NCBI GenBank assembly: GCA_046538235.1
Contig: JBKHJG010000001.1
Span: 60,581 to 124,580 of the forward strand
Reading direction: 5' to 3'
DNA length: 64,000 bases
Source: Dehalococcoidia bacterium
GTDB taxonomy: Bacteria > Chloroflexota > Dehalococcoidia > GIF9 > AB-539-J10
Within the stretch, counting starts at the first letter, position 1. Each line of letters starts with the position of its first letter. The translations under genes and the position numbers were made by a program. Of this stretch, positions 11,530-58,142 are shown in pieces. The notes under the pieces were generated by a model that saw nothing but the letters and a program-made list of their open reading frames with translations, was not told the DNA's origin and ran no database searches.

Positions 11530-11558
11530 GGGGCCGGGGCTCAAGAGCCCCGGCCCTC
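11530..11558 (-). terminator. GC-rich hairpin downstream of the acylase gene (gggccggggctc-aaga-gagccccggccc)
   Basis: 12-bp perfect stem located 55-80 nt past the acylase stop. No strong U-tract follows. Confidence 0.35.
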
Positions 11559-11611: not shown

Positions 11612-14392
11612 CTAGTCAGCGAAGAAGTCTCTTTCCCAGGTCGCGACCGCTTCCACTGACACGCGGCTAAGATGCATGGGCTTGTACGTCCAGCTCGCAT
11701 ACAGCAATACCTGGTCATAAGCGTGCGGGCTGGGAGTTGGCGTGGGCGTTTTGCCATCCACTATCTTGAGCTCCATGAACCCGCTCTGCCCGGGCGGAAT
11801 GACGTTCTTGCCCTGCGGCAACGGCGTCGATAGCTCGGCGATCTGGTTATAGGTACCACGGTTCATGGCCGGGTGGCTGAACACGTCGGTCGGCAGGGCT
11901 CCCAGTTTGTCATACTTCTGCATACGCACCGGGGTCAGCCAGGTCGACATGTCCTCGCCGTATTCAACCTTCAGGTCAGCAATCGCCTCTTTCAACGCAT
12001 CCATAATCAGCGCATCCAGTGCCTCGCCAGTCGGGTAGCCAGGATAGTTGAGGGACCCATCAGCCCTGAACACGCGGACCAGCAGGCTGGGATAACCCTT
12101 GACCTGTCCGATCATATCTGCCGGCAGAATCCCGTCAAACACCATGGGGACGACCTTGTCGTACCAGGCATTGAAGATGGTCAGACCGGCATGATCGTAA
12201 GTAGGATTCTCATCGTCAGGCCACTTGGGTGGTACAAAATCGACATAACTGACAGGAAGAGGGGTTGCTGTAGCCCAGGCTCCGAGGTGCTCCAGGGCTG
12301 CTACAACCTCCGGGTCACTGGTCTCTCCCACATAAGCCGTGGCCGCGGTTATCAGATCCCCCGCAAAGTTCATTCCTGCGGTATTGTGGTATCCGGCAAC
12401 CTGATTAATCGTGTTCAGATGGGCGGGCGTGAGGTCTCCACCGGCGGCCAATGCGGTCACAGTATCCAGCAGTATCTGCACACGGTGACCGTCGCCCCAG
12501 TGGAAGTCACTCTCTGCAAATGGCCAGCCAGCAATTGGTTTGTTGTTCCAATTGGTGAGCCAACCCTGCTCAGGATTGATCGACCTGGGCATCTCCTCAG
12601 GCCCGGTGACGCGCACCCATTCCTGTGTTCCGTCGCCCATCAAGGGCGTCCTGGGATCGGCACCCTCCGGCTTCACCGGGAAGCGCCCGGCATGCCAGTA
12701 GCCGATGTTGCCTTCGGTATCTGCCCACAAGAAGTTGTGGTTAGGCCAGATCATCTCCACCGCCGCCTCAAACTCGTCGACGTTGGTGGCCTCCTGGAAA
12801 AGTTCCCAGCCCTGCTCGCCCGCGATCTCATTTCTGTAGAAGGGGGTGTGCAGGGTGAAGGCCGTGCCTGCGTCTACGTCCACCTCGACGATGGGCCCAT
12901 AATGCGAGCGATAGAACGTCTCCGTTACCGGCTCAGCCAGCCCGCGAACCACGAACGTCTCGGTCCTGACCTCCATGTCACGCCACTCACCCTCATACAG
13001 GTACTGAGTCGGGTTCTCGGGGTTCAGTACCAGTACACGGATGTCCATAACATCGGAGGCACCGGTGGTTGACGTCCAGGCCCCATATTCACTGACGCCG
13101 ATCAAGATGAACGGACCTGCCGACGGGAATGCCATGCCCACGGCGTTTATGCCGTCGCCATGCAGACCTATCTCCATGACAATCTGCGGAACCGAGTAGC
13201 CCATCTGGGGTCCTCCCAGTAGCAGGGCATTCCCGGTGGCCGATAGTTCAGGCCTGACGGGTAGGGCATTGCTTCCCAGTTTCCGCGGTATGCCCAGCGA
13301 CTGAAGCAGCTCATCCTGCGCCGCCCGGGACTCCGCGTATTCCACAAAGAGCTCCTCCACGCCGTCCGGCAAATCCACCAGAGAAACGGTGGTGGCGGCA
13401 GCTTCCCCGAAAACCTGGTCGGGTATCGTAACCGGTGCTCCGGCATCTTCGAGTGGGAAGAGGTCGCTCCATACCGCCCCTCCTAGCGCCTCTCCGTGCA
13501 CTGCCTGTAGGCCAAGCAAAGCAGTGTACATGTCGCCTTCGTTGCCACCCGTACCACCAAACCTCCAACCCATTAGCACCGTAACGGCAACTACATCCGA
13601 CACGGTGAACTCCTCGAGTTCGCCAATCAGCTTGTTCGCCACATATTCAATAGGCATGAGAGACGGATCGAGCAGCGCTTCATAGATGTAAAGGTTTATG
13701 CCATCTACATAGGCTTCAATCATGGGCTTGAGGTGCCGGTAGCCCGCGCCGGGATCCCAGTCGTCATACATCTCCTGTAGCTCCGCCTGGTTGTACCACA
13801 ATGCCCTCAGTTCCTTGTCCTGAGCCAGATAGTCCGGGCCCAGAAGTTCGGCAAGGCGGCCGGAAGCGGTTCTGCGCAGGACATCCGCCTGCCACAGCCT
13901 GTCCTGGGCCATGGCATAGCCAGCTCCAAAGGCCAAGTCCTCTCGCGTGTCGGCGAAGACGTGGGGAACTCCGTAGTCGTCTCTGATGATGGTAAGCAAG
14001 GGCTGCGGAGGTGGGGTGGCTGGGAATTCAGCGATTACCACATCCGATCCGGCAGCATTGCTTACCGATGCTGCACCGGCTACCTCAAAGAAGTTCGCCG
14101 GCACGCCAATGAAGGTGTAGCCTTCTTTGGCTGTCAATATGATGGTGGCCGTGTATGCTGTGTCTGCCTCAAACAGATCATGGTCGGGGTCCCAGGCCAC
14201 GGTTCCTGTGTACTGCTCCGTTGGGGTAATCGTGGTCACCGGCGTTTCACCTGTTGCCGGTGGGGTTACCCCAGAGATCTCCTCAATGTCAATTGTCTGC
14301 AGCTCGCCATCGCCGTCACTGGGTTGACAGCCAGCCACAACCAGTCCCATCACAAGCAGGGACACCAAGATAAGGTAAGTGATTCTTTTCAA
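11612..14392 (-). CDS. penicillin amidase (S45 Ntn-hydrolase) family lipoprotein with an extra ~110-aa N-terminal module; TTG start
   Basis: Lipobox (LVVAGC). Penicillin acylase alpha-subunit motifs (IIRDDYGVPHVFADT..GYAMAQDRLWQ) and beta-subunit N-terminal nucleophile context (GSNALP). 926 aa. Confidence 0.85.
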   Translation of the reverse strand: MKRITYLILVSLLVMGLVVAGCQPSDGDGELQTIDIEEISGVTPPATGETPVTTITPTEQYTGTVAWDPDHDLFEADTAYTATIILTAKEGYTFIGVPANFFEVAGAASVSNAAGSDVVIAEFPATPPPQPLLTIIRDDYGVPHVFADTREDLAFGAGYAMAQDRLWQADVLRRTASGRLAELLGPDYLAQDKELRALWYNQAELQEMYDDWDPGAGYRHLKPMIEAYVDGINLYIYEALLDPSLMPIEYVANKLIGELEEFTVSDVVAVTVLMGWRFGGTGGNEGDMYTALLGLQAVHGEALGGAVWSDLFPLEDAGAPVTIPDQVFGEAAATTVSLVDLPDGVEELFVEYAESRAAQDELLQSLGIPRKLGSNALPVRPELSATGNALLLGGPQMGYSVPQIVMEIGLHGDGINAVGMAFPSAGPFILIGVSEYGAWTSTTGASDVMDIRVLVLNPENPTQYLYEGEWRDMEVRTETFVVRGLAEPVTETFYRSHYGPIVEVDVDAGTAFTLHTPFYRNEIAGEQGWELFQEATNVDEFEAAVEMIWPNHNFLWADTEGNIGYWHAGRFPVKPEGADPRTPLMGDGTQEWVRVTGPEEMPRSINPEQGWLTNWNNKPIAGWPFAESDFHWGDGHRVQILLDTVTALAAGGDLTPAHLNTINQVAGYHNTAGMNFAGDLITAATAYVGETSDPEVVAALEHLGAWATATPLPVSYVDFVPPKWPDDENPTYDHAGLTIFNAWYDKVVPMVFDGILPADMIGQVKGYPSLLVRVFRADGSLNYPGYPTGEALDALIMDALKEAIADLKVEYGEDMSTWLTPVRMQKYDKLGALPTDVFSHPAMNRGTYNQIAELSTPLPQGKNVIPPGQSGFMELKIVDGKTPTPTPSPHAYDQVLLYASWTYKPMHLSRVSVEAVATWERDFFAD

Positions 14393-14535
14393 CCTTTAGC
14401 CTCCTTCTTGTTCTTTTGGTTATTCCGATTTCCTGGCAGTTAGGCTTTGGGCGCCGGAAGGATCCAGTCGACCACTAGTTGCCTCCGGCGACCGTTCCTT
14501 CATGCAGTACCCCGATAGATCCACCTCCTTTCTCT
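14000..14535 (-). repeat. copy 1 of a dispersed inverted duplication (leader + RBS + TTG start + signal peptide + N-terminal domain); partner at 55743-56285
   Basis: Near-identical RBS/start context (aatcgga..aaggaggc.aaaggTTGAAAAGA). ~130 aa of collinear protein identity and ~140 nt of upstream nucleotide similarity to the partner copy. Confidence 0.8.
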
Positions 14536-14754
14536 CCGGCCTCGGTCAATGCCGAGTCACAGGTTGCCCGTTTCGCCAACTTACCAGGCGATTCATGCGG
14601 AATTCGGGAAAGAACAGGGGCAAAAGAGCAGACGTTGCTGTGACCGCAATGAGGGAGCCGAAACCACGTTGATATGCGCTCGGCTGAATCTGACGTAAAC
14701 CGAAGGACTCCCCTGACGTACACACTTGACCACCGACCTAGCGTAGGCCCTTCC

Positions 14755-14785
14755 ATTATACCCCTCTTGACCAGTGAATTGTCAA
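14755..14785 (-). promoter_or_regulatory. sigma70-like promoter TTGACA-N18-TATAAT on the minus strand, ~355 nt upstream of the acylase start
   Basis: Consensus -35 and -10 hexamers read on the minus strand (plus-strand tgtcaa at 14780-14785, attata at 14755-14760). Confidence 0.5.
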
Positions 14786-14927
14786 CAGCTACCAGCTTCG
14801 ACCATGCGTGTGATCCCAGTCAGCTGCCGCTCATGCATCGAGGGGGAAGATGACCAGCGCAGAGCAGTCAGATATTCGGTGTGCACCACGAAATGCCGAA
14901 TGCCTTCTTGTAGTTGATACTGCAGTA

Positions 14928-22712: not shown

Positions 22713-22733
22713 CTCAGAAGATACCTTTAAATC

Positions 22734-22747
22734 AGTCCCGTGAGGCT
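22734..22747 (+). promoter_or_regulatory. PyrR binding loop (AGUCCCGUGAGGCU) in the pyr leader
   Basis: Matches the PyrR RNA-recognition consensus ARUCCNGNGAGGYU at every position. Confidence 0.6.
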
Positions 22748-22789
22748 GGTAAGGGGCGTTATGCTACAACACAGCGTAATAGGAACACC

Positions 22790-22830
22790 GACTCGAACCT
22801 CTTGCCAGTTTGCAGGCAGGAGGTTTTTTA
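22790..22830 (+). terminator. pyr attenuator: hairpin (cctcttgcc...ggcaggagg) followed by TTTTTT, immediately 5' of the pyrR GTG start and sequestering the RBS
   Basis: Stem plus U-tract between the PyrR box and the start codon, the classic PyrR-dependent attenuation arrangement. Confidence 0.45.
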
Positions 22831-23409
22831 GTGCCTGAAAAGGTTCTCCTCACTCCAAGGGAGATAGAGCGGGCCCTGGCCCGTATTGCTCACGAGATCG
22901 TAGAAAGGAACAAGGGCGCGGAAGGGGTTGTGCTGGTAGGGATGCGAACCCGCGGAGTACCTCTAGCCTGGCGGGTAGCCGGGATAATTGAGAGCTTTGA
23001 AAGAACGCGTGTCCCGGTGGGTACTCTGGATATCGGTCTGTATCGCGATGACATCTCCCCTACGGAGTCAGAACCGGCCAGCCAGAGCTACACTGAGATC
23101 CCCACGGCTATCACCGATAGGCCGGTAGTCCTGGTGGACGATGTTCTCTATACGGGAAGGAGCATCCGGGCTGCTATGGACGCCCTTATGGACCTGGGGC
23201 GTCCCAGCTCTGTTCAGTTGGCTGTACTGATTGATCGCGGTCATCGCGAGTTACCCATCCGCGCCGATTACGTTGGCAAGAATATACCCAGCGCCAAGGG
23301 CGAGCAGATACAGGTCCAGCTGGCGGAGACTGATGGCGTAGACCGGGTGATAATCGCCAGTCCGGCCGGGGGAAACTACGCGCTGGAAACTAAGGAGGGC
23401 GTCTCGTGA
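22831..23409 (+). CDS. pyrR: bifunctional pyrimidine operon regulator / uracil phosphoribosyltransferase PyrR
   Basis: PRTase motif ([20 protein letters not shown]) and typical PyrR N-terminus. GTG start at 22831; the ORF track extends it to 22810. Confidence 0.9.
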
Positions 23410-55287: not shown

Positions 55288-55472
55288 CCGGGAGCGGCGG
55301 AGCGTTGCATTCAAGCGGGCGTTGCCGCCCGGGAGAAGCCCTGCTTCCGCCACGCCCAGGATGCTTGAGAGCGATCACGCAGGGCCCTATCTTTAACAGA
55401 ATCTTAACATTTCCATGCTACCATTCAATTGCCAAAGGGGAAAACGACAGACGTGAGGGATCGCAGTCATCG

Positions 55473-55499
55473 TTGACAAACACCCGAAGCCGATATACC
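55473..55499 (+). promoter_or_regulatory. candidate promoter TTGACA-N15-TATACC ~390 nt upstream of the SBP gene
   Basis: Good -35 hexamer, weak -10 and short spacer. Positionally analogous to the strong promoter of the paralogous leader at 14755-14785. Confidence 0.3.
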
Positions 55500-55742
55500 A
55501 TAAGAAAGGCGACCGAAGCGGCAAAAGGTAAGGTTGCGCGTGACCTGGCGACAGTTGCAGTGATGCCGAGATTCGGAGATGGTCGAGATTTCCAGTTTTC
55601 AGCAGCTTCTTGGTCTCCCTTTGCTTTGCTTGTTAGGGCGGACAGCAAGGTAGACAGAGCACTGACGATGTAGTTGCCCCATGTCTGGACAGTGAAGACC
55701 TGGCGGATCAGGCAACTACATCGTAGCGGGAGACGAGAGCAT

Positions 55743-56285
55743 GAAAGGAGGTGGTTCTATCGGTATATGGCATGAAGGGTGAGCTGCTGGAGGCAACTGG
55801 TGGTCGACCGGTTTCTTCCGGCACTAAAAGCGCCAAGGGTTTGCTCCGGTAGAATCGGAGCAACGACAGAAAACAAAAAGGAGGCCAAAGGTTGAAAAGA
55901 GTTCTTTACCTGATCATAGCTACTCTGCTGGTCATGGGGCTGGTGCTGGCTGGCTGTCCTAGCAACGGCAACGGCGGAGATACAACAGTCACCACCAAAG
56001 CAATACAGGGAGTAACCCCACCGGCAACCGGCGACAGCCCGGTGACCGCAATCACAGAAACGGCTCAGTTCACGGGGACCGTGTCCTGGAGTCCTGCTCA
56101 TGATCCGTTTGAGGCCAGTACGGAGTACACGGCCACCATCGAGCTCACGGCCAAGACAGGATACACCTTCGACGGCGTGTCGGCGAACTTCTTCACAGTA
56201 TCCGGAGCAACTGCGACCAACCCGGCCGACTCCGGCGTGGTAACCGCGGTATTCCCGGAGACGGCGGCCGCGCCCGCCCCTAAGA
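55743..56285 (+). repeat. copy 2 of the dispersed inverted duplication (leader + RBS + TTG start + signal peptide + N-terminal domain); partner at 14000-14535
   Basis: See copy 1. Extended nucleotide similarity runs from the gaaaggaggtgg motif through the first ~390 nt of coding sequence. Confidence 0.8.
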
Positions 56286-57793
56286 TCACGTTCGCAGTCA
56301 CCGGCCCGATGACATTCATCCAGGGCCTGGATCACTGGGCGGGTGCCGAAATGGCCCGTGACGAGATCAACGCAGCCGGCGGTGTCGACGTCGGCGGGGT
56401 CCGGCATGACATCGCCCTAAGAAAGGTGGAGACCAATGAGATCCTGGATGTGAGCGGTGTCTCCGGCACAACTGCCCTGACGGCAGTAATAGACGAGGTG
56501 GACTTCGTCGTCGGCGGTTTCCGAACAGAATCCGTCCAGGTCTATCGAGAGGCGGCCATGGACGCCCAGAAGCTGATGATGAACTGCGGTGCAGCTACAG
56601 CAGCACTGCAGGGCTCGGTACTCGCAGATTATGGCAGATACAAGTACTGGTTCAAGGCCACCCCCTACAATGAGGTCTTCCTGGTCACCAGCTGCCTCAG
56701 GTATTCCGCCACGGTCAACTCGGTCTTGAGGGCGACGCTGGCCGGCGCCCGCAACGCAAATTCCATACCGGGACCCGGCGGAGAGGACTGGACGGCTGAC
56801 GACATCGAGCCGCTCAGGTTCGCCATCCTCATGGAGAATGCGGAGTGGTGTAACCCCATGGAGCCGTACGTTTTGGGGGTTCTGCCGGCTAAGGGCATGG
56901 AACATGTCGGCACATTTAAGTGCGAGAGTGCAGCAACCGACCTCGAGGCCCAGCTGACGGCAATCAGTGCACAGAATCCCCACGTCATCTTCACCATAAT
57001 CTCCGGACCGCCCGGCAAAGCCTATGGGTCGCAGCAACCCATCTATGCACCGAACGTGTTCTCGATCGGCATCAACGTGGAGGCCCAGGACATAAACTAC
57101 CACGATGACACCGGGGCGTCCTATCACATCACCCTGGACACCTGGCCCGACGGCTGCGCCGTCACTCCCAACACCGTAGACTGGTTCAACTCTTTCGTGG
57201 CCAAGACGGGAAGGTATCCGGCCTATACGGCTGCTACCTATGATGCTATTTACGCCATCATTGACGGTGTAGAGGCGGTGTCGGCGGCCAACGGATGGGA
57301 TACTATCGACGATGTGGTAAGCCCTGCCAACATCGATGCCCTGATTCAGTACATCGAAACGACACCCCGTGAGGGCGTGGGTGCCAACACAGCTTATTAT
57401 CCCATACCCGAGGTCGATGTGGGTGGTGGCGTATATGCGCTGAGCGAGGAGCAGGTGCTGGCACTCTATCCTCATGTGCAGGACCTCATAGACAACGGCG
57501 TCTACACCTATAGCCCGGCGGACTGGACGACCTTAGGCGGGCATATCCCCCACGACACCGTGTACGGTCCCGGCTATCAGACCGGCACCGCTGTCCAGTG
57601 GCAGGAGATCGGAGGAACGTGGAAGAAGGTGGCCGTCTGGCCTCTGCTGTTCACGGACCCCGCCACCCCCTACTGGCAGCTCTACGCCGCCGGAGCAGTT
57701 GACCTATACGGGAACTGGAACTTCCAGTACGATGGCACGCAGTCGCTGGTGGTGCCCACCGAGTGGATAACGGCCTGGATAAGCCCGCCCTAA
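55892..57793 (+). CDS. ABC transporter substrate-binding lipoprotein (Leu/Ile/Val-binding, LivK-like type-I PBP) with an extra ~110-aa N-terminal module; TTG start
   Basis: Lipobox (LVLAGC). A shared N-module is followed by a type-I periplasmic binding fold. Adjacent livH and livM, and convergent livG and livF. Confidence 0.8.
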   Translation: MKRVLYLIIATLLVMGLVLAGCPSNGNGGDTTVTTKAIQGVTPPATGDSPVTAITETAQFTGTVSWSPAHDPFEASTEYTATIELTAKTGYTFDGVSANFFTVSGATATNPADSGVVTAVFPETAAAPAPKITFAVTGPMTFIQGLDHWAGAEMARDEINAAGGVDVGGVRHDIALRKVETNEILDVSGVSGTTALTAVIDEVDFVVGGFRTESVQVYREAAMDAQKLMMNCGAATAALQGSVLADYGRYKYWFKATPYNEVFLVTSCLRYSATVNSVLRATLAGARNANSIPGPGGEDWTADDIEPLRFAILMENAEWCNPMEPYVLGVLPAKGMEHVGTFKCESAATDLEAQLTAISAQNPHVIFTIISGPPGKAYGSQQPIYAPNVFSIGINVEAQDINYHDDTGASYHITLDTWPDGCAVTPNTVDWFNSFVAKTGRYPAYTAATYDAIYAIIDGVEAVSAANGWDTIDDVVSPANIDALIQYIETTPREGVGANTAYYPIPEVDVGGGVYALSEEQVLALYPHVQDLIDNGVYTYSPADWTTLGGHIPHDTVYGPGYQTGTAVQWQEIGGTWKKVAVWPLLFTDPATPYWQLYAAGAVDLYGNWNFQYDGTQSLVVPTEWITAWISPP

Positions 57794-57842
57794 GCCCAGG
57801 CACAACTGCAGGACAAAGACGCTGCTCTTTGTTAGAGATGAC

Positions 57843-57880
57843 GGTGACCCCGGGGCGCCCCGGGGTCACCGCTTTTCTTG
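57843..57880 (+). terminator. intrinsic terminator: perfect 13-bp stem (ggtgaccccgggg-cg-ccccggggtcacc) followed by a T-rich tract
   Basis: Lies 50 nt after the SBP stop. GC-rich stem followed by gcttttcttg. Confidence 0.6.
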
Positions 57881-58112: not shown

Positions 58113-58142
58113 TTGACAAGCTGAGACGGGCTGAGATATAGT
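58113..58142 (+). promoter_or_regulatory. candidate promoter TTGACA-N18-TATAGT for livHM, followed by a structured ~140-nt leader
   Basis: Hexamers at 58113-58118 and 58137-58142. The leader contains hairpins (ggcgggg-tttat-ccccgcc; ggtgacaaa...tttgtcacc). Confidence 0.4.

Follow-up and report, generated by a model that had tools for sequence, protein, structure and literature searches.

In Bacillus thuringiensis, the 558-nt leader of cry3A contains, at position -129, a sequence resembling a Shine-Dalgarno (SD) sequence (PMC4113751). This element, STAB-SD, binds the 30S subunit without initiation and blocks 5'-to-3' decay by RNase J1 (PMC4113751, reviewing Agaisse and Lereclus, 1996; Mathy et al., 2007). 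Further, livK (RF01744, Pseudomonadales) and msiK (RF01747, Actinobacteria) are orphan cis-regulatory motifs upstream of ATP-binding cassette (ABC) transporter genes (Weinberg et al., 2010; PMC2864571). Here we describe a leader element in a stretch of 64,000 nucleotides from a Dehalococcoidia bacterium (Chloroflexota; assembly GCA_046538235.1, contig JBKHJG010000001.1, positions 60,581 to 124,580). This whole stretch is called the window, and positions are counted from its first letter. The element is a core of ~96 nt in the 5' leaders of two lipoprotein genes, gene A, which encodes an acylase, and gene B, which encodes the substrate-binding protein (SBP) of an ABC transporter.

Dehalococcoidia, most of which are uncultured, abound in subsurface and marine sediments, and very little is known of how they regulate their genes. 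A preliminary description of the two leaders had proposed a conserved cis-regulatory RNA, namely a riboswitch-like element, a leader-peptide attenuator or a small RNA (sRNA). Our analysis indicates that the core is very probably a selected RNA structure in a real leader. We conclude that it is a previously undescribed cis-acting 5'-leader RNA of Dehalococcoidia lipoprotein genes, outside Rfam, and that this module probably controls or stabilizes the mRNA.

Results

The leaders of two lipoprotein genes share a conserved core

Gene A (11612-14392, minus strand) encodes a lipoprotein with an N-terminal B-repeat domain and a penicillin amidase domain (Ntn acylase; Pfam, E = 6e-127). Gene B (55892-57793, plus strand) encodes a lipoprotein with an N-terminal B-repeat domain followed by Peripla_BP_6 (ABC substrate-binding protein; Pfam). 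When the two loci were compared using blastn, positions 14532-14022 of the minus strand aligned with 55743-56256 of the plus strand (71% identity) over ~150 nt of leader and ~365 nt of coding sequence, the latter specifying the signal peptide and the B-repeat domain. The core within this block lies at 14439-14534 on the minus strand (copy A) and at 55741-55836 on the plus strand (copy B). The two copies are 74% identical over the core, with several fully identical blocks, and 50% identical at the third codon positions of the co-duplicated coding sequence. A 20-nt probe from the block matched only twice in the 64 kb, once in each leader, against 0.02 matches expected by chance. The shared leader block of the preliminary description was therefore real.

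Homologues of the core were collected by pattern and protein searches (loci outside the window carry the designations L001 and so on). An exact-pattern scan of GTDB representative genomes yielded four true copies among 10 matches, all in Dehalococcoidia metagenome-assembled genomes (MAGs), and a pattern scan of metagenomes yielded 12 copies among 51 matches. The matches that we discarded (6 of 10 and 39 of 51, respectively) had neither flanking stems nor a lipoprotein context, and many of those from metagenomes shared one conserved coding sequence. A search that started from proteins related to gene B, whose contigs were then retrieved, added divergent copies beyond the reach of the pattern (L071, L073/L074/L075, L077, L078 and L079). 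The core is thus represented by 18 distinct sequences; every named source is a Dehalococcoidia MAG and the rest are metagenome contigs. In a covariance model (R1) built from 17 copies, copy B scored 101 bits (E = 3e-22) and copy A 89 bits (E = 3e-19). The model detected no further copies in 332 kb of related DNA, and a DNA pattern detected none in viral contigs.

In all 18 sequences, the core lies on the sense strand and ends 40-70 nt before the start codon of a lipoprotein gene, and the encoded signal peptides are very similar. The gene is almost always that of a binding protein adjoining a conserved permease/ATPase/acyl-CoA-ligase cluster. The element is absent from other binding-protein paralogues on the same contigs.

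The identity of the core was compared with that of neighboring sequences. Four-fold degenerate sites of the neighboring ATPase and permease genes are 43-58% identical between the window and other genomes, that is, essentially saturated, and the binding-protein domain is 35-64% identical in amino acid sequence among homologues. The core is 60-94% identical in nucleotide sequence despite the saturation of neutral sites, and a 23-nt stretch, GGAGGCAACUGGUGGUCGACCGG, is nearly invariant, indicating that the core is under purifying selection. Further, copies A and B are no more similar to each other (74%) than copy B is to distant orthologues (about 76%). The duplication is therefore old, and both copies have been maintained. 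The conservation of the leaders extends beyond the ribosome-binding site (RBS).

The core comprises an SD mimic and a two-part hairpin

From 5' to 3', the core consists of an SD mimic, a small hairpin (Pb) and a larger two-part hairpin (P1/P2). The SD-like GGAGG that had been noted in both leaders belongs to the mimic. In copy B it lies at 55743-55754 on the plus strand (GAAAGGAGGTGG / GAAAGGAGGUGG, 12 nt with the preceding A), and in copy A, as read from the sequence, at 14532-14521 on the minus strand (GAAAGGAGGUGG). The 12-nt mimic AGAAAGGAGGUG is as strong as the best true ribosome-binding sites of the window, for example that of ftsA (AAAGGAGGTGA), its complementarity to the 3' end of 16S rRNA being judged without the 16S sequence of the organism itself. 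Within the window, AAGGAGGTG occurs in intergenic DNA without an adjacent start codon only in these two leaders. The mimic is kept in 11 of 18 copies, and two more have a GGGGG variant that is compatible through G.U pairing. In no copy does ATG, GTG or TTG follow 5-12 nt past the mimic; the closest ATG, at 20 nt, is not conserved.

Pb is an A/U hairpin (CUAU-CGGU-AUAG) that is 78% paired across copies. The P1/P2 hairpin occupies 55785-55823 on the plus strand in copy B (P1, 55785-55793 with 55815-55823; P2, 55795-55801 with 55807-55813; loop GGUCG) and 14452-14490 on the minus strand in copy A (P1, 14490-14482 with 14460-14452; P2, 14478-14474 with 14468-14464). The pairing of CCGGAGG with CTTCCGG suggested earlier proved to be the outer stem, P1, which has 9 bp and includes a GGAGG:CUUCC duplex. 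The inner stem, P2, has 6 bp.

RNAalifold predicted P1/P2 unaided. On a MAFFT alignment, 96% of the P1/P2 cells were paired, compared with 32-54% when the partner strand was slid. Three pairs of P1/P2 changed on both sides (for example, U-A in nine copies, C-G in five and U.G in three), and six showed compatible changes on one side; all of the one-sided substitutions were transitions that preserved RNA pairing. The compensatory changes that distinguish copy A from copy B are A-U for G-C in P2 and, at the base of P1, C-G for U-A. G.U accounts for 46 of the 255 helix cells, which leaves only 78% able to pair on the opposite strand. Accordingly, the sense strands scored 69-104 bits with the covariance model and the antisense strands at most 26 bits. 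Stems that vary compatibly thus surround conserved unpaired nucleotides, as is expected of a riboswitch, within the limited power of 17-18 sequences from few lineages.

Thermodynamic folding gave the same hairpin. Isolated P1/P2 folded at -24.3 kcal/mol in copy B (z = -4.3) and at -21.6 kcal/mol in copy A (z = -2.8), and the isolated 43-nt hairpin adopted an identical two-stem fold in eight diverse copies, with z down to -4.6. When the region from the core to +25 was folded, the probability of P1 exceeded 0.9 in 13 of 17 folds and the true SD was mostly unpaired (0.5-0.8). In the minimum-energy fold of L077, the CCUUCC strand of P1 paired with the true SD, which was the sole anti-SD:SD fold among the 17 copies. 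L079 has no upper half of P1, and L078 has two A.C mismatches. An alternative hairpin competing with P1 (AGUUGC/GCAACU) was considered and rejected; it is present in some copies and broken in A, B and L071.

A third hairpin, P3 (UUGCUCCGGU-AGA-AUCGGAGCAA; 55841-55863, plus strand), was identified downstream of copy B by folding and manual alignment. In a manual alignment of 10 copies, three of its pairs switch from C-G to U-A. P3 is present in ~11 copies and is absent or degenerate in seven, including copy A. The proposal of a conserved cis-regulatory RNA thus held insofar as a sense-strand structure is kept across saturated lineages, but the upstream open reading frame (uORF) that was part of it was wrong, as described below.

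The element is unmatched in Rfam

The preliminary description had matched the leaders to no known riboswitch class, and the same result was obtained with Rfam 15. A cmscan search with 4227 models assigned no family to either leader or to six homologous loci, even with E up to 5-10. The sole gathering-level match in the window was a PyrR-binding leader (RF00515, 54.6 bits) at 22720-22832 on the plus strand, which overlaps the start of the first gene of the pyrimidine-biosynthesis cluster and lies immediately upstream of that cluster. A scan for tRNA and tmRNA genes gave none. Our literature search found no described Dehalococcoidia leader or riboswitch and nothing relevant on the distribution of RNase J in Chloroflexi.

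No intrinsic terminator was found in the leaders, though canonical, GC-rich ones were readily detected 3' of both genes (gene A, 11531-11556, minus strand, 11-bp stem; gene B, 57842-57871, plus strand, 13-bp stem). Since terminators are easily detected in this genome, their absence from the leaders is informative. Sequestration of the true SD was examined as an alternative and was not consistent across 17 folds. An expression platform of the riboswitch type, whether a terminator or an SD-sequestering helix alternating with the aptamer, is therefore not recognizable. The element may still be riboswitch-like, as the preliminary description proposed, in that the module itself is aptamer-like, but no terminator accompanies it and the true SD is not consistently masked. 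A T-box was rejected as well. The UGGUCGA loop (the GGUGGUCGACC loop) superficially resembles the GGUGGUACC of T-boxes, but RF00230 was unmatched, there is no Stem I, and the UGG is lost in L073 (CAGUCAC), L077 (CGG), L078 (UGU) and L079 (AGG).

The uORFs said to be led by GGAGG exist physically in both leaders (26 amino acids at 55772-55852, plus strand; 27 amino acids at 14420-14503, minus strand) but are not conserved as genes. The ATG lies 20 nt past the GGAGG and is therefore too distant for the GGAGG to act as its SD. The start codon is present in eight of 17 copies, with ATA, ACG, CTA or CTG in its place elsewhere, and L023 is frameshifted. Further, codon positions 1/2/3 account for 7/8/3 of the differences between A and B, and the Leu/Pro and Gly/Ser replacements go with the pairing of the RNA. 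These observations are contrary to a leader-peptide attenuator. An independent sRNA was rejected too: the core has no promoter or terminator of its own, no terminator separates it from the start codon, and its orientation near the lipoprotein gene is fixed.

Both leaders are long

The leaders deduced from promoter positions are ~355 nt for gene A (14393-14748, minus strand) and ~385 nt for gene B (55508-55891, plus strand; the start is taken from the promoter and is unmapped), which agrees with the long paralogous leaders described at the outset. The leader of gene A is collinear with that of the orthologous acylase locus L012 along its whole length, its start likewise being deduced. The consensus promoter reported for gene A is at the expected place (14755-14785, minus strand; TTGACA at 14785-14780 and TATAAT at 14760-14755, read from the sequence), but its spacer is 19 nt and not 18. 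This TTGACA-N19-TATAAT promoter is kept in L012, and it was missing from the list of our consensus scan because of the 19-nt spacer. The scan placed the promoter of gene B, TTGACA-N17-TACCAT, at 55473-55501 on the plus strand. Five other lineages (L018, L024, L030, L038 and L071) have a conserved TTGACA-N17-TTTAAT aligned with it, and L079 has TTGACA-N17-TATAAT at the equivalent relative position. Both genes start with TTG preceded by a true SD, AAGGAGG (gene A, 14390-14406, minus strand, read from the sequence; gene B, 55878-55894, plus strand, in A-rich surroundings). The mean unpaired probability of the gene B SD in the folded leader was 0.70.

When seven homologues were aligned over the ~560 nt preceding their start codons, conserved blocks ran from promoter to start codon in seven lineages, with leaders of 279-392 nt that are 57-64% purine. 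The leader of gene A is a mosaic, with a 5' part of the amidase type, like the leader of the L073 amidase, and a 3' part of the SBP type that contains the core. In L073 and L077, the amidase leaders have the SD mimic and lack the hairpin.

Upstream of the core, we noted a tentative hairpin, HP1 (55575-55593, plus strand; stem GGAGAU/AUUUCC, loop GGUCGAG), from the sequence and the alignment, with no statistics. In other lineages, the GGUCGAG loop is retained on a different stem (CAAA/UUUG). The motif GGUCGA is common to the HP1 and P2 loops, which are ~225 nt apart. A repeat search further detected a hairpin formed by a 14-nt perfect inverted repeat, ACGAUGUAGUUGCC / GGCAACUACAUCGU (55665-55724, plus strand; arms 55665-55678 and 55711-55724). 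The arm GGCAACUACA is conserved across lineages, and the partner arm is lineage-specific. The leader of gene B also contains an internal repeat of a hairpin followed by GCAACUACAAA and then by a purine-rich SD, one unit preceding the SD mimic and the other the true SD (window, 55700-55724 versus 55841-55870; also in the leaders of L014, L009 and L079). Judging from this repeat, the SD mimic may be a relic of a duplicated translation-initiation region.

Other features of the whole leaders were less regular. The minimum-energy folds of the full leaders A and B disagreed (z = -3.2 and +0.1), and folding of whole leaders as single sequences was therefore uninformative. Enrichment of GGAG was modest; between 2 and 180 of 500 dinucleotide-preserving shuffles matched or exceeded the observed count. 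No conserved long-range partner of the purine-rich block or the SD mimic emerged with RNAduplex, and the partners varied by lineage.

Two further observations concern the DNA around the leaders. A conserved block, TTAACAGAATCTTAACATTTCCATGCTAC, at 55393-55421 of the window holds a direct repeat of TTAACA and also occurs in L073 (~9790), L077, L078 (205-235) and L079 (3509-3540). In the window and L079, it precedes the -35 box of the binding-protein gene by ~50 nt; in L073 and L078, it lies downstream of a TTGACA-N17-TACATT promoter. The block is a candidate transcription-factor site or alternative promoter. Public gene calls place hypothetical ORFs of 54-72 amino acids with no Pfam match on the leaders (L001, 703-921; L071, 15478-15696; L079, 3626-3790), and these spurious genes are probably annotation artefacts.

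The two genes probably belong to a transporter-associated gene set

The N-terminal module of ~125 amino acids common to the products of genes A and B corresponds to Flg_new_2 (the B-repeat domain) according to precomputed Pfam matches on homologues. The gene B protein is identical to an NCBI entry from a Dehalococcoidia MAG that is annotated as an ABC transporter substrate-binding protein. Genes A and B are each their own transcription unit, consisting of a sigma-70-type promoter, a purine-rich leader, the lipoprotein gene and a strong terminator. Both are therefore monocistronic, gene B because the terminator at 57842-57871 ends the unit. A separate permease-gene promoter (TTGACA-N18-TATAGT; 58113-58142, plus strand) lies downstream of gene B. 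Given this promoter and the strong terminators, the binding protein is transcribed apart from its transporter.

Wherever the contig is long enough, the binding-protein gene is followed by a conserved cluster of livH/livM-type permeases, two ATPases and an AMP-dependent ligase, and the ATPases of homologous loci are 82-88% identical in amino acid sequence to those of the window. In two other MAGs, the genes of the B-repeat acylase and the B-repeat binding protein are divergent neighbors (L073, 6484-11803; L077, 1-4788), with permease, AMP-ligase, ATPase and beta-oxidation genes alongside. This arrangement indicates that the acylase and the binding protein of the window very likely cooperate, with an extracellular acylase whose products would be taken up and activated as CoA esters, as suggested by the gene context. 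The gene set suggests that N-acylated compounds are scavenged through one pathway.

The leaders of stand-alone B-repeat genes (L001, L003 and L005) were examined as possible relatives of the element and rejected; they have only CUGGAGGCA and the RBS in common with it and do not match the model. These genes, from the ZHEN22 metagenome, encode lipoproteins of 129 amino acids that consist of a signal peptide and a B-repeat only, and they possess a conserved leader of their own of ~215 nt. A 5S rRNA fragment (37.8 bits, just below the gathering score) occurs at 1-61 on the minus strand of L063, cut by the contig end, a few hundred nucleotides from a copy of the leader.

Discussion

We tentatively favor, with somewhat less than even confidence, the reading that the leader is an mRNA stabilizer or a ribosome-loading element resembling STAB-SD. 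A 30S subunit would bind the decoy SD without initiating. The subunit bound there and the stable hairpin beside it would act as a 5' roadblock, and the mRNA downstream would be protected from decay dependent on the 5' end. The long primary leader might be trimmed back to the mimic and hairpin, as at the cry3A STAB-SD. An abundant surface protein would thus be made from an mRNA that is long-lived and heavily translated. The near-invariant loop of the hairpin, which is repeated in the upstream hairpin, probably also binds a factor. Several points favor a stabilizer over a switch: the leader has no terminator, the true SD is open, P1 is dominant and the mimic is not followed by a start codon. Others are that the mimic occurs in the hairpin-less amidase leaders of L073 and L077, that its strength tracks that of the true SD across lineages, and that the geometry appears similar to that of cry3A, with the promoter at about -355 to -385 and the mimic at about -140.

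The following points weigh against this reading. The reading relies on a predicted start site and presumes transcript processing, a long mRNA half-life, 30S binding and an RNase J or RNase Y in these organisms. The mimic is lost in four of 18 copies (L009, L014, L015 and L035), in which the hairpin is retained; a function independent of the mimic must therefore be assumed for the hairpin. Further, a near-invariant loop and stem of 23 nt and a second hairpin with the same loop exceed what a generic stabilizer needs, which points to specific recognition by a protein or ligand. Conserved blocks upstream of the mimic would not be expected if that part of the leader were merely degraded. The element is confined to the binding protein of one transporter, its paralogues and the partner acylase, and this narrow association fits specific regulation at least as well as general enhancement of expression. 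Finally, the sequence conservation of the stems limits covariation; three of 15 pairs are changed on both sides, and shuffles reach the covariation score in six of 500 cases.

The main rival, less likely in our view but serious, is that the element is a regulatory RNA switch. P1/P2, perhaps docking with the upstream GGUCGA hairpin, would bind a substrate-related small molecule or an RNA-binding protein and thereby act on the acylase and binding-protein mRNAs through translation, Rho-dependent termination or decay. The nucleotides of the loop and the internal loop are near-invariant while the flanking stems vary compatibly, and a second hairpin carries the same loop motif. The associated genes are few and coherent (the binding protein of the livHM-type cluster with its two ATPases and AMP-dependent ligase, and the neighboring acylase in L073 and L077), and other binding-protein paralogues on the same contigs do without the element. 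P1 is itself a GGAGG:CUUCC duplex, and the pairing of its CCUUCC strand with the true SD in L077 hints at an alternative conformation. However, such a switch would have no conserved expression platform, given the lack of a terminator, the accessible SD in most folds and the dominance of P1. The structure is a string of hairpins and not a multi-helix junction, the upper half of P1 is lost in L079, L078 has its two A.C mismatches, and Rfam gave no match. The candidate DNA operator TTAACAG...TTAACA (55393-55421) could also provide substrate-specific control alone. An elaboration that we regard as improbable is a new class of switch, in which the GGUCGA-loop hairpins would dock within a leader or between the acylase and binding-protein mRNAs. 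It would respond to the scavenged acyl compound or a dedicated RNA-binding protein and co-ordinate the acylase with the transporter.

The remaining explanations are less probable still. The conserved sequence might be a DNA operator, in which the palindrome GGTCGACC and the upstream GGTCGA repeat bind a transcription factor (for example, of the GntR type) that acts by roadblock or looping, the hairpin merely reflecting operator symmetry. GGTCGACC is indeed a perfect 8-bp palindrome in most copies, GGTCGA recurs about 225 bp upstream, and symmetric palindrome positions can change together too. However, in the 39-bp inverted repeat, two positions that are mismatched as DNA pair in the sense RNA (G.U in 15 of 17 copies and U.G in 14 of 17). 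The palindrome is broken in five copies (GGTCGACT) in which RNA pairing is intact, and the one-sided substitutions are all transitions that preserve such pairing. Moreover, the site lies ~290 nt downstream of the promoter within the transcribed leader, the covariance-model score is strongly strand-asymmetric, and P3 and other hairpins covary independently. Because of the strand-specific G.U pattern and the location in the transcribed region, we consider an operator quite unlikely. The core might instead be a functionless remnant that was copied together with the signal-peptide/B-repeat cassette when the genes recombined, and the similarity between A and B does run on into the coding region and the leader of gene A is a mosaic. 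This explanation is hardly tenable, since the core is kept in 18 sequences across lineages saturated at synonymous sites, the A-B identity relative to that of B and its distant orthologues indicates an old duplication, and copy A and its orthologue L012 both retain the hairpin with compatible changes. Control of the downstream gene by translation of the 26-27-amino-acid uORF, as a leader-peptide attenuator or small protein, is the least credible explanation and is largely refuted. Both window copies do have an ORF of similar length that begins with ATG, and its frame is open through the hairpin in most homologues, but the start-codon, frameshift, spacing and codon-position data given above are contrary to it, and there is no terminator for attenuation. 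The leader-peptide, sRNA and hitch-hiking-remnant explanations are thus essentially excluded.

The element is a well-delimited cis-acting RNA, new to Rfam, whose further copies can be sought using a covariance model. The genes that it marks form a specific set, in which a lipoprotein acylase is combined with the binding protein of an ABC importer that is linked to an acyl-CoA ligase, and whose probable food source is N-acylated organic matter. A stabilizer would extend the STAB-SD principle beyond Firmicutes and would explain the over-production of binding proteins relative to permeases. In the case of a switch, the ligand would reveal what is carried by a transporter that is common among Dehalococcoidia. 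The element also shows that genes of 54-72 amino acids annotated over the leaders in public records are probably spurious.

The locus can be compared with four described systems. It shares with the trp, leu and phe leader-peptide attenuators a short ORF that overlaps a hairpin of the 5' leader; here, unlike in those systems, the ORF is not conserved, has no runs of regulatory codons and is not accompanied by a terminator/antiterminator pair. In guanidine-II (mini-ykkC) riboswitches, two hairpins with identical loops dock on each other. The present leader likewise has two hairpins with the same partly self-complementary loop (GGUCGA, core UCGA), between which loop-loop contact would be possible. 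However, these hairpins are ~225 nt apart, their loops are larger and the upstream one is tentative; further, the second hairpin contains no SD, and there was no Rfam match. The livK and msiK motifs differ in architecture, match neither in sequence nor in structure by cmscan, and have no counterpart of the SD mimic found here. They resemble the present element as conserved structured 5' untranslated region (UTR) elements of a transporter binding-protein or ATPase gene, with an orphan ligand or partner and a narrow taxonomic range.

The differences from the cry3A STAB-SD are that the mimic is here joined to a conserved two-part hairpin and other conserved blocks, that it is missing in four of 18 copies, that the host belongs to Chloroflexota, and that processing, 30S binding and stabilization are here predictions. 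On the other hand, both systems have a long 5' UTR with extended complementarity to the 3' end of 16S rRNA far inside it (about -140 in the present leaders, -129 in cry3A). In both, this sequence directs no initiation, the primary transcript appears to begin several hundred nucleotides upstream, and the product of the downstream gene is probably abundant.

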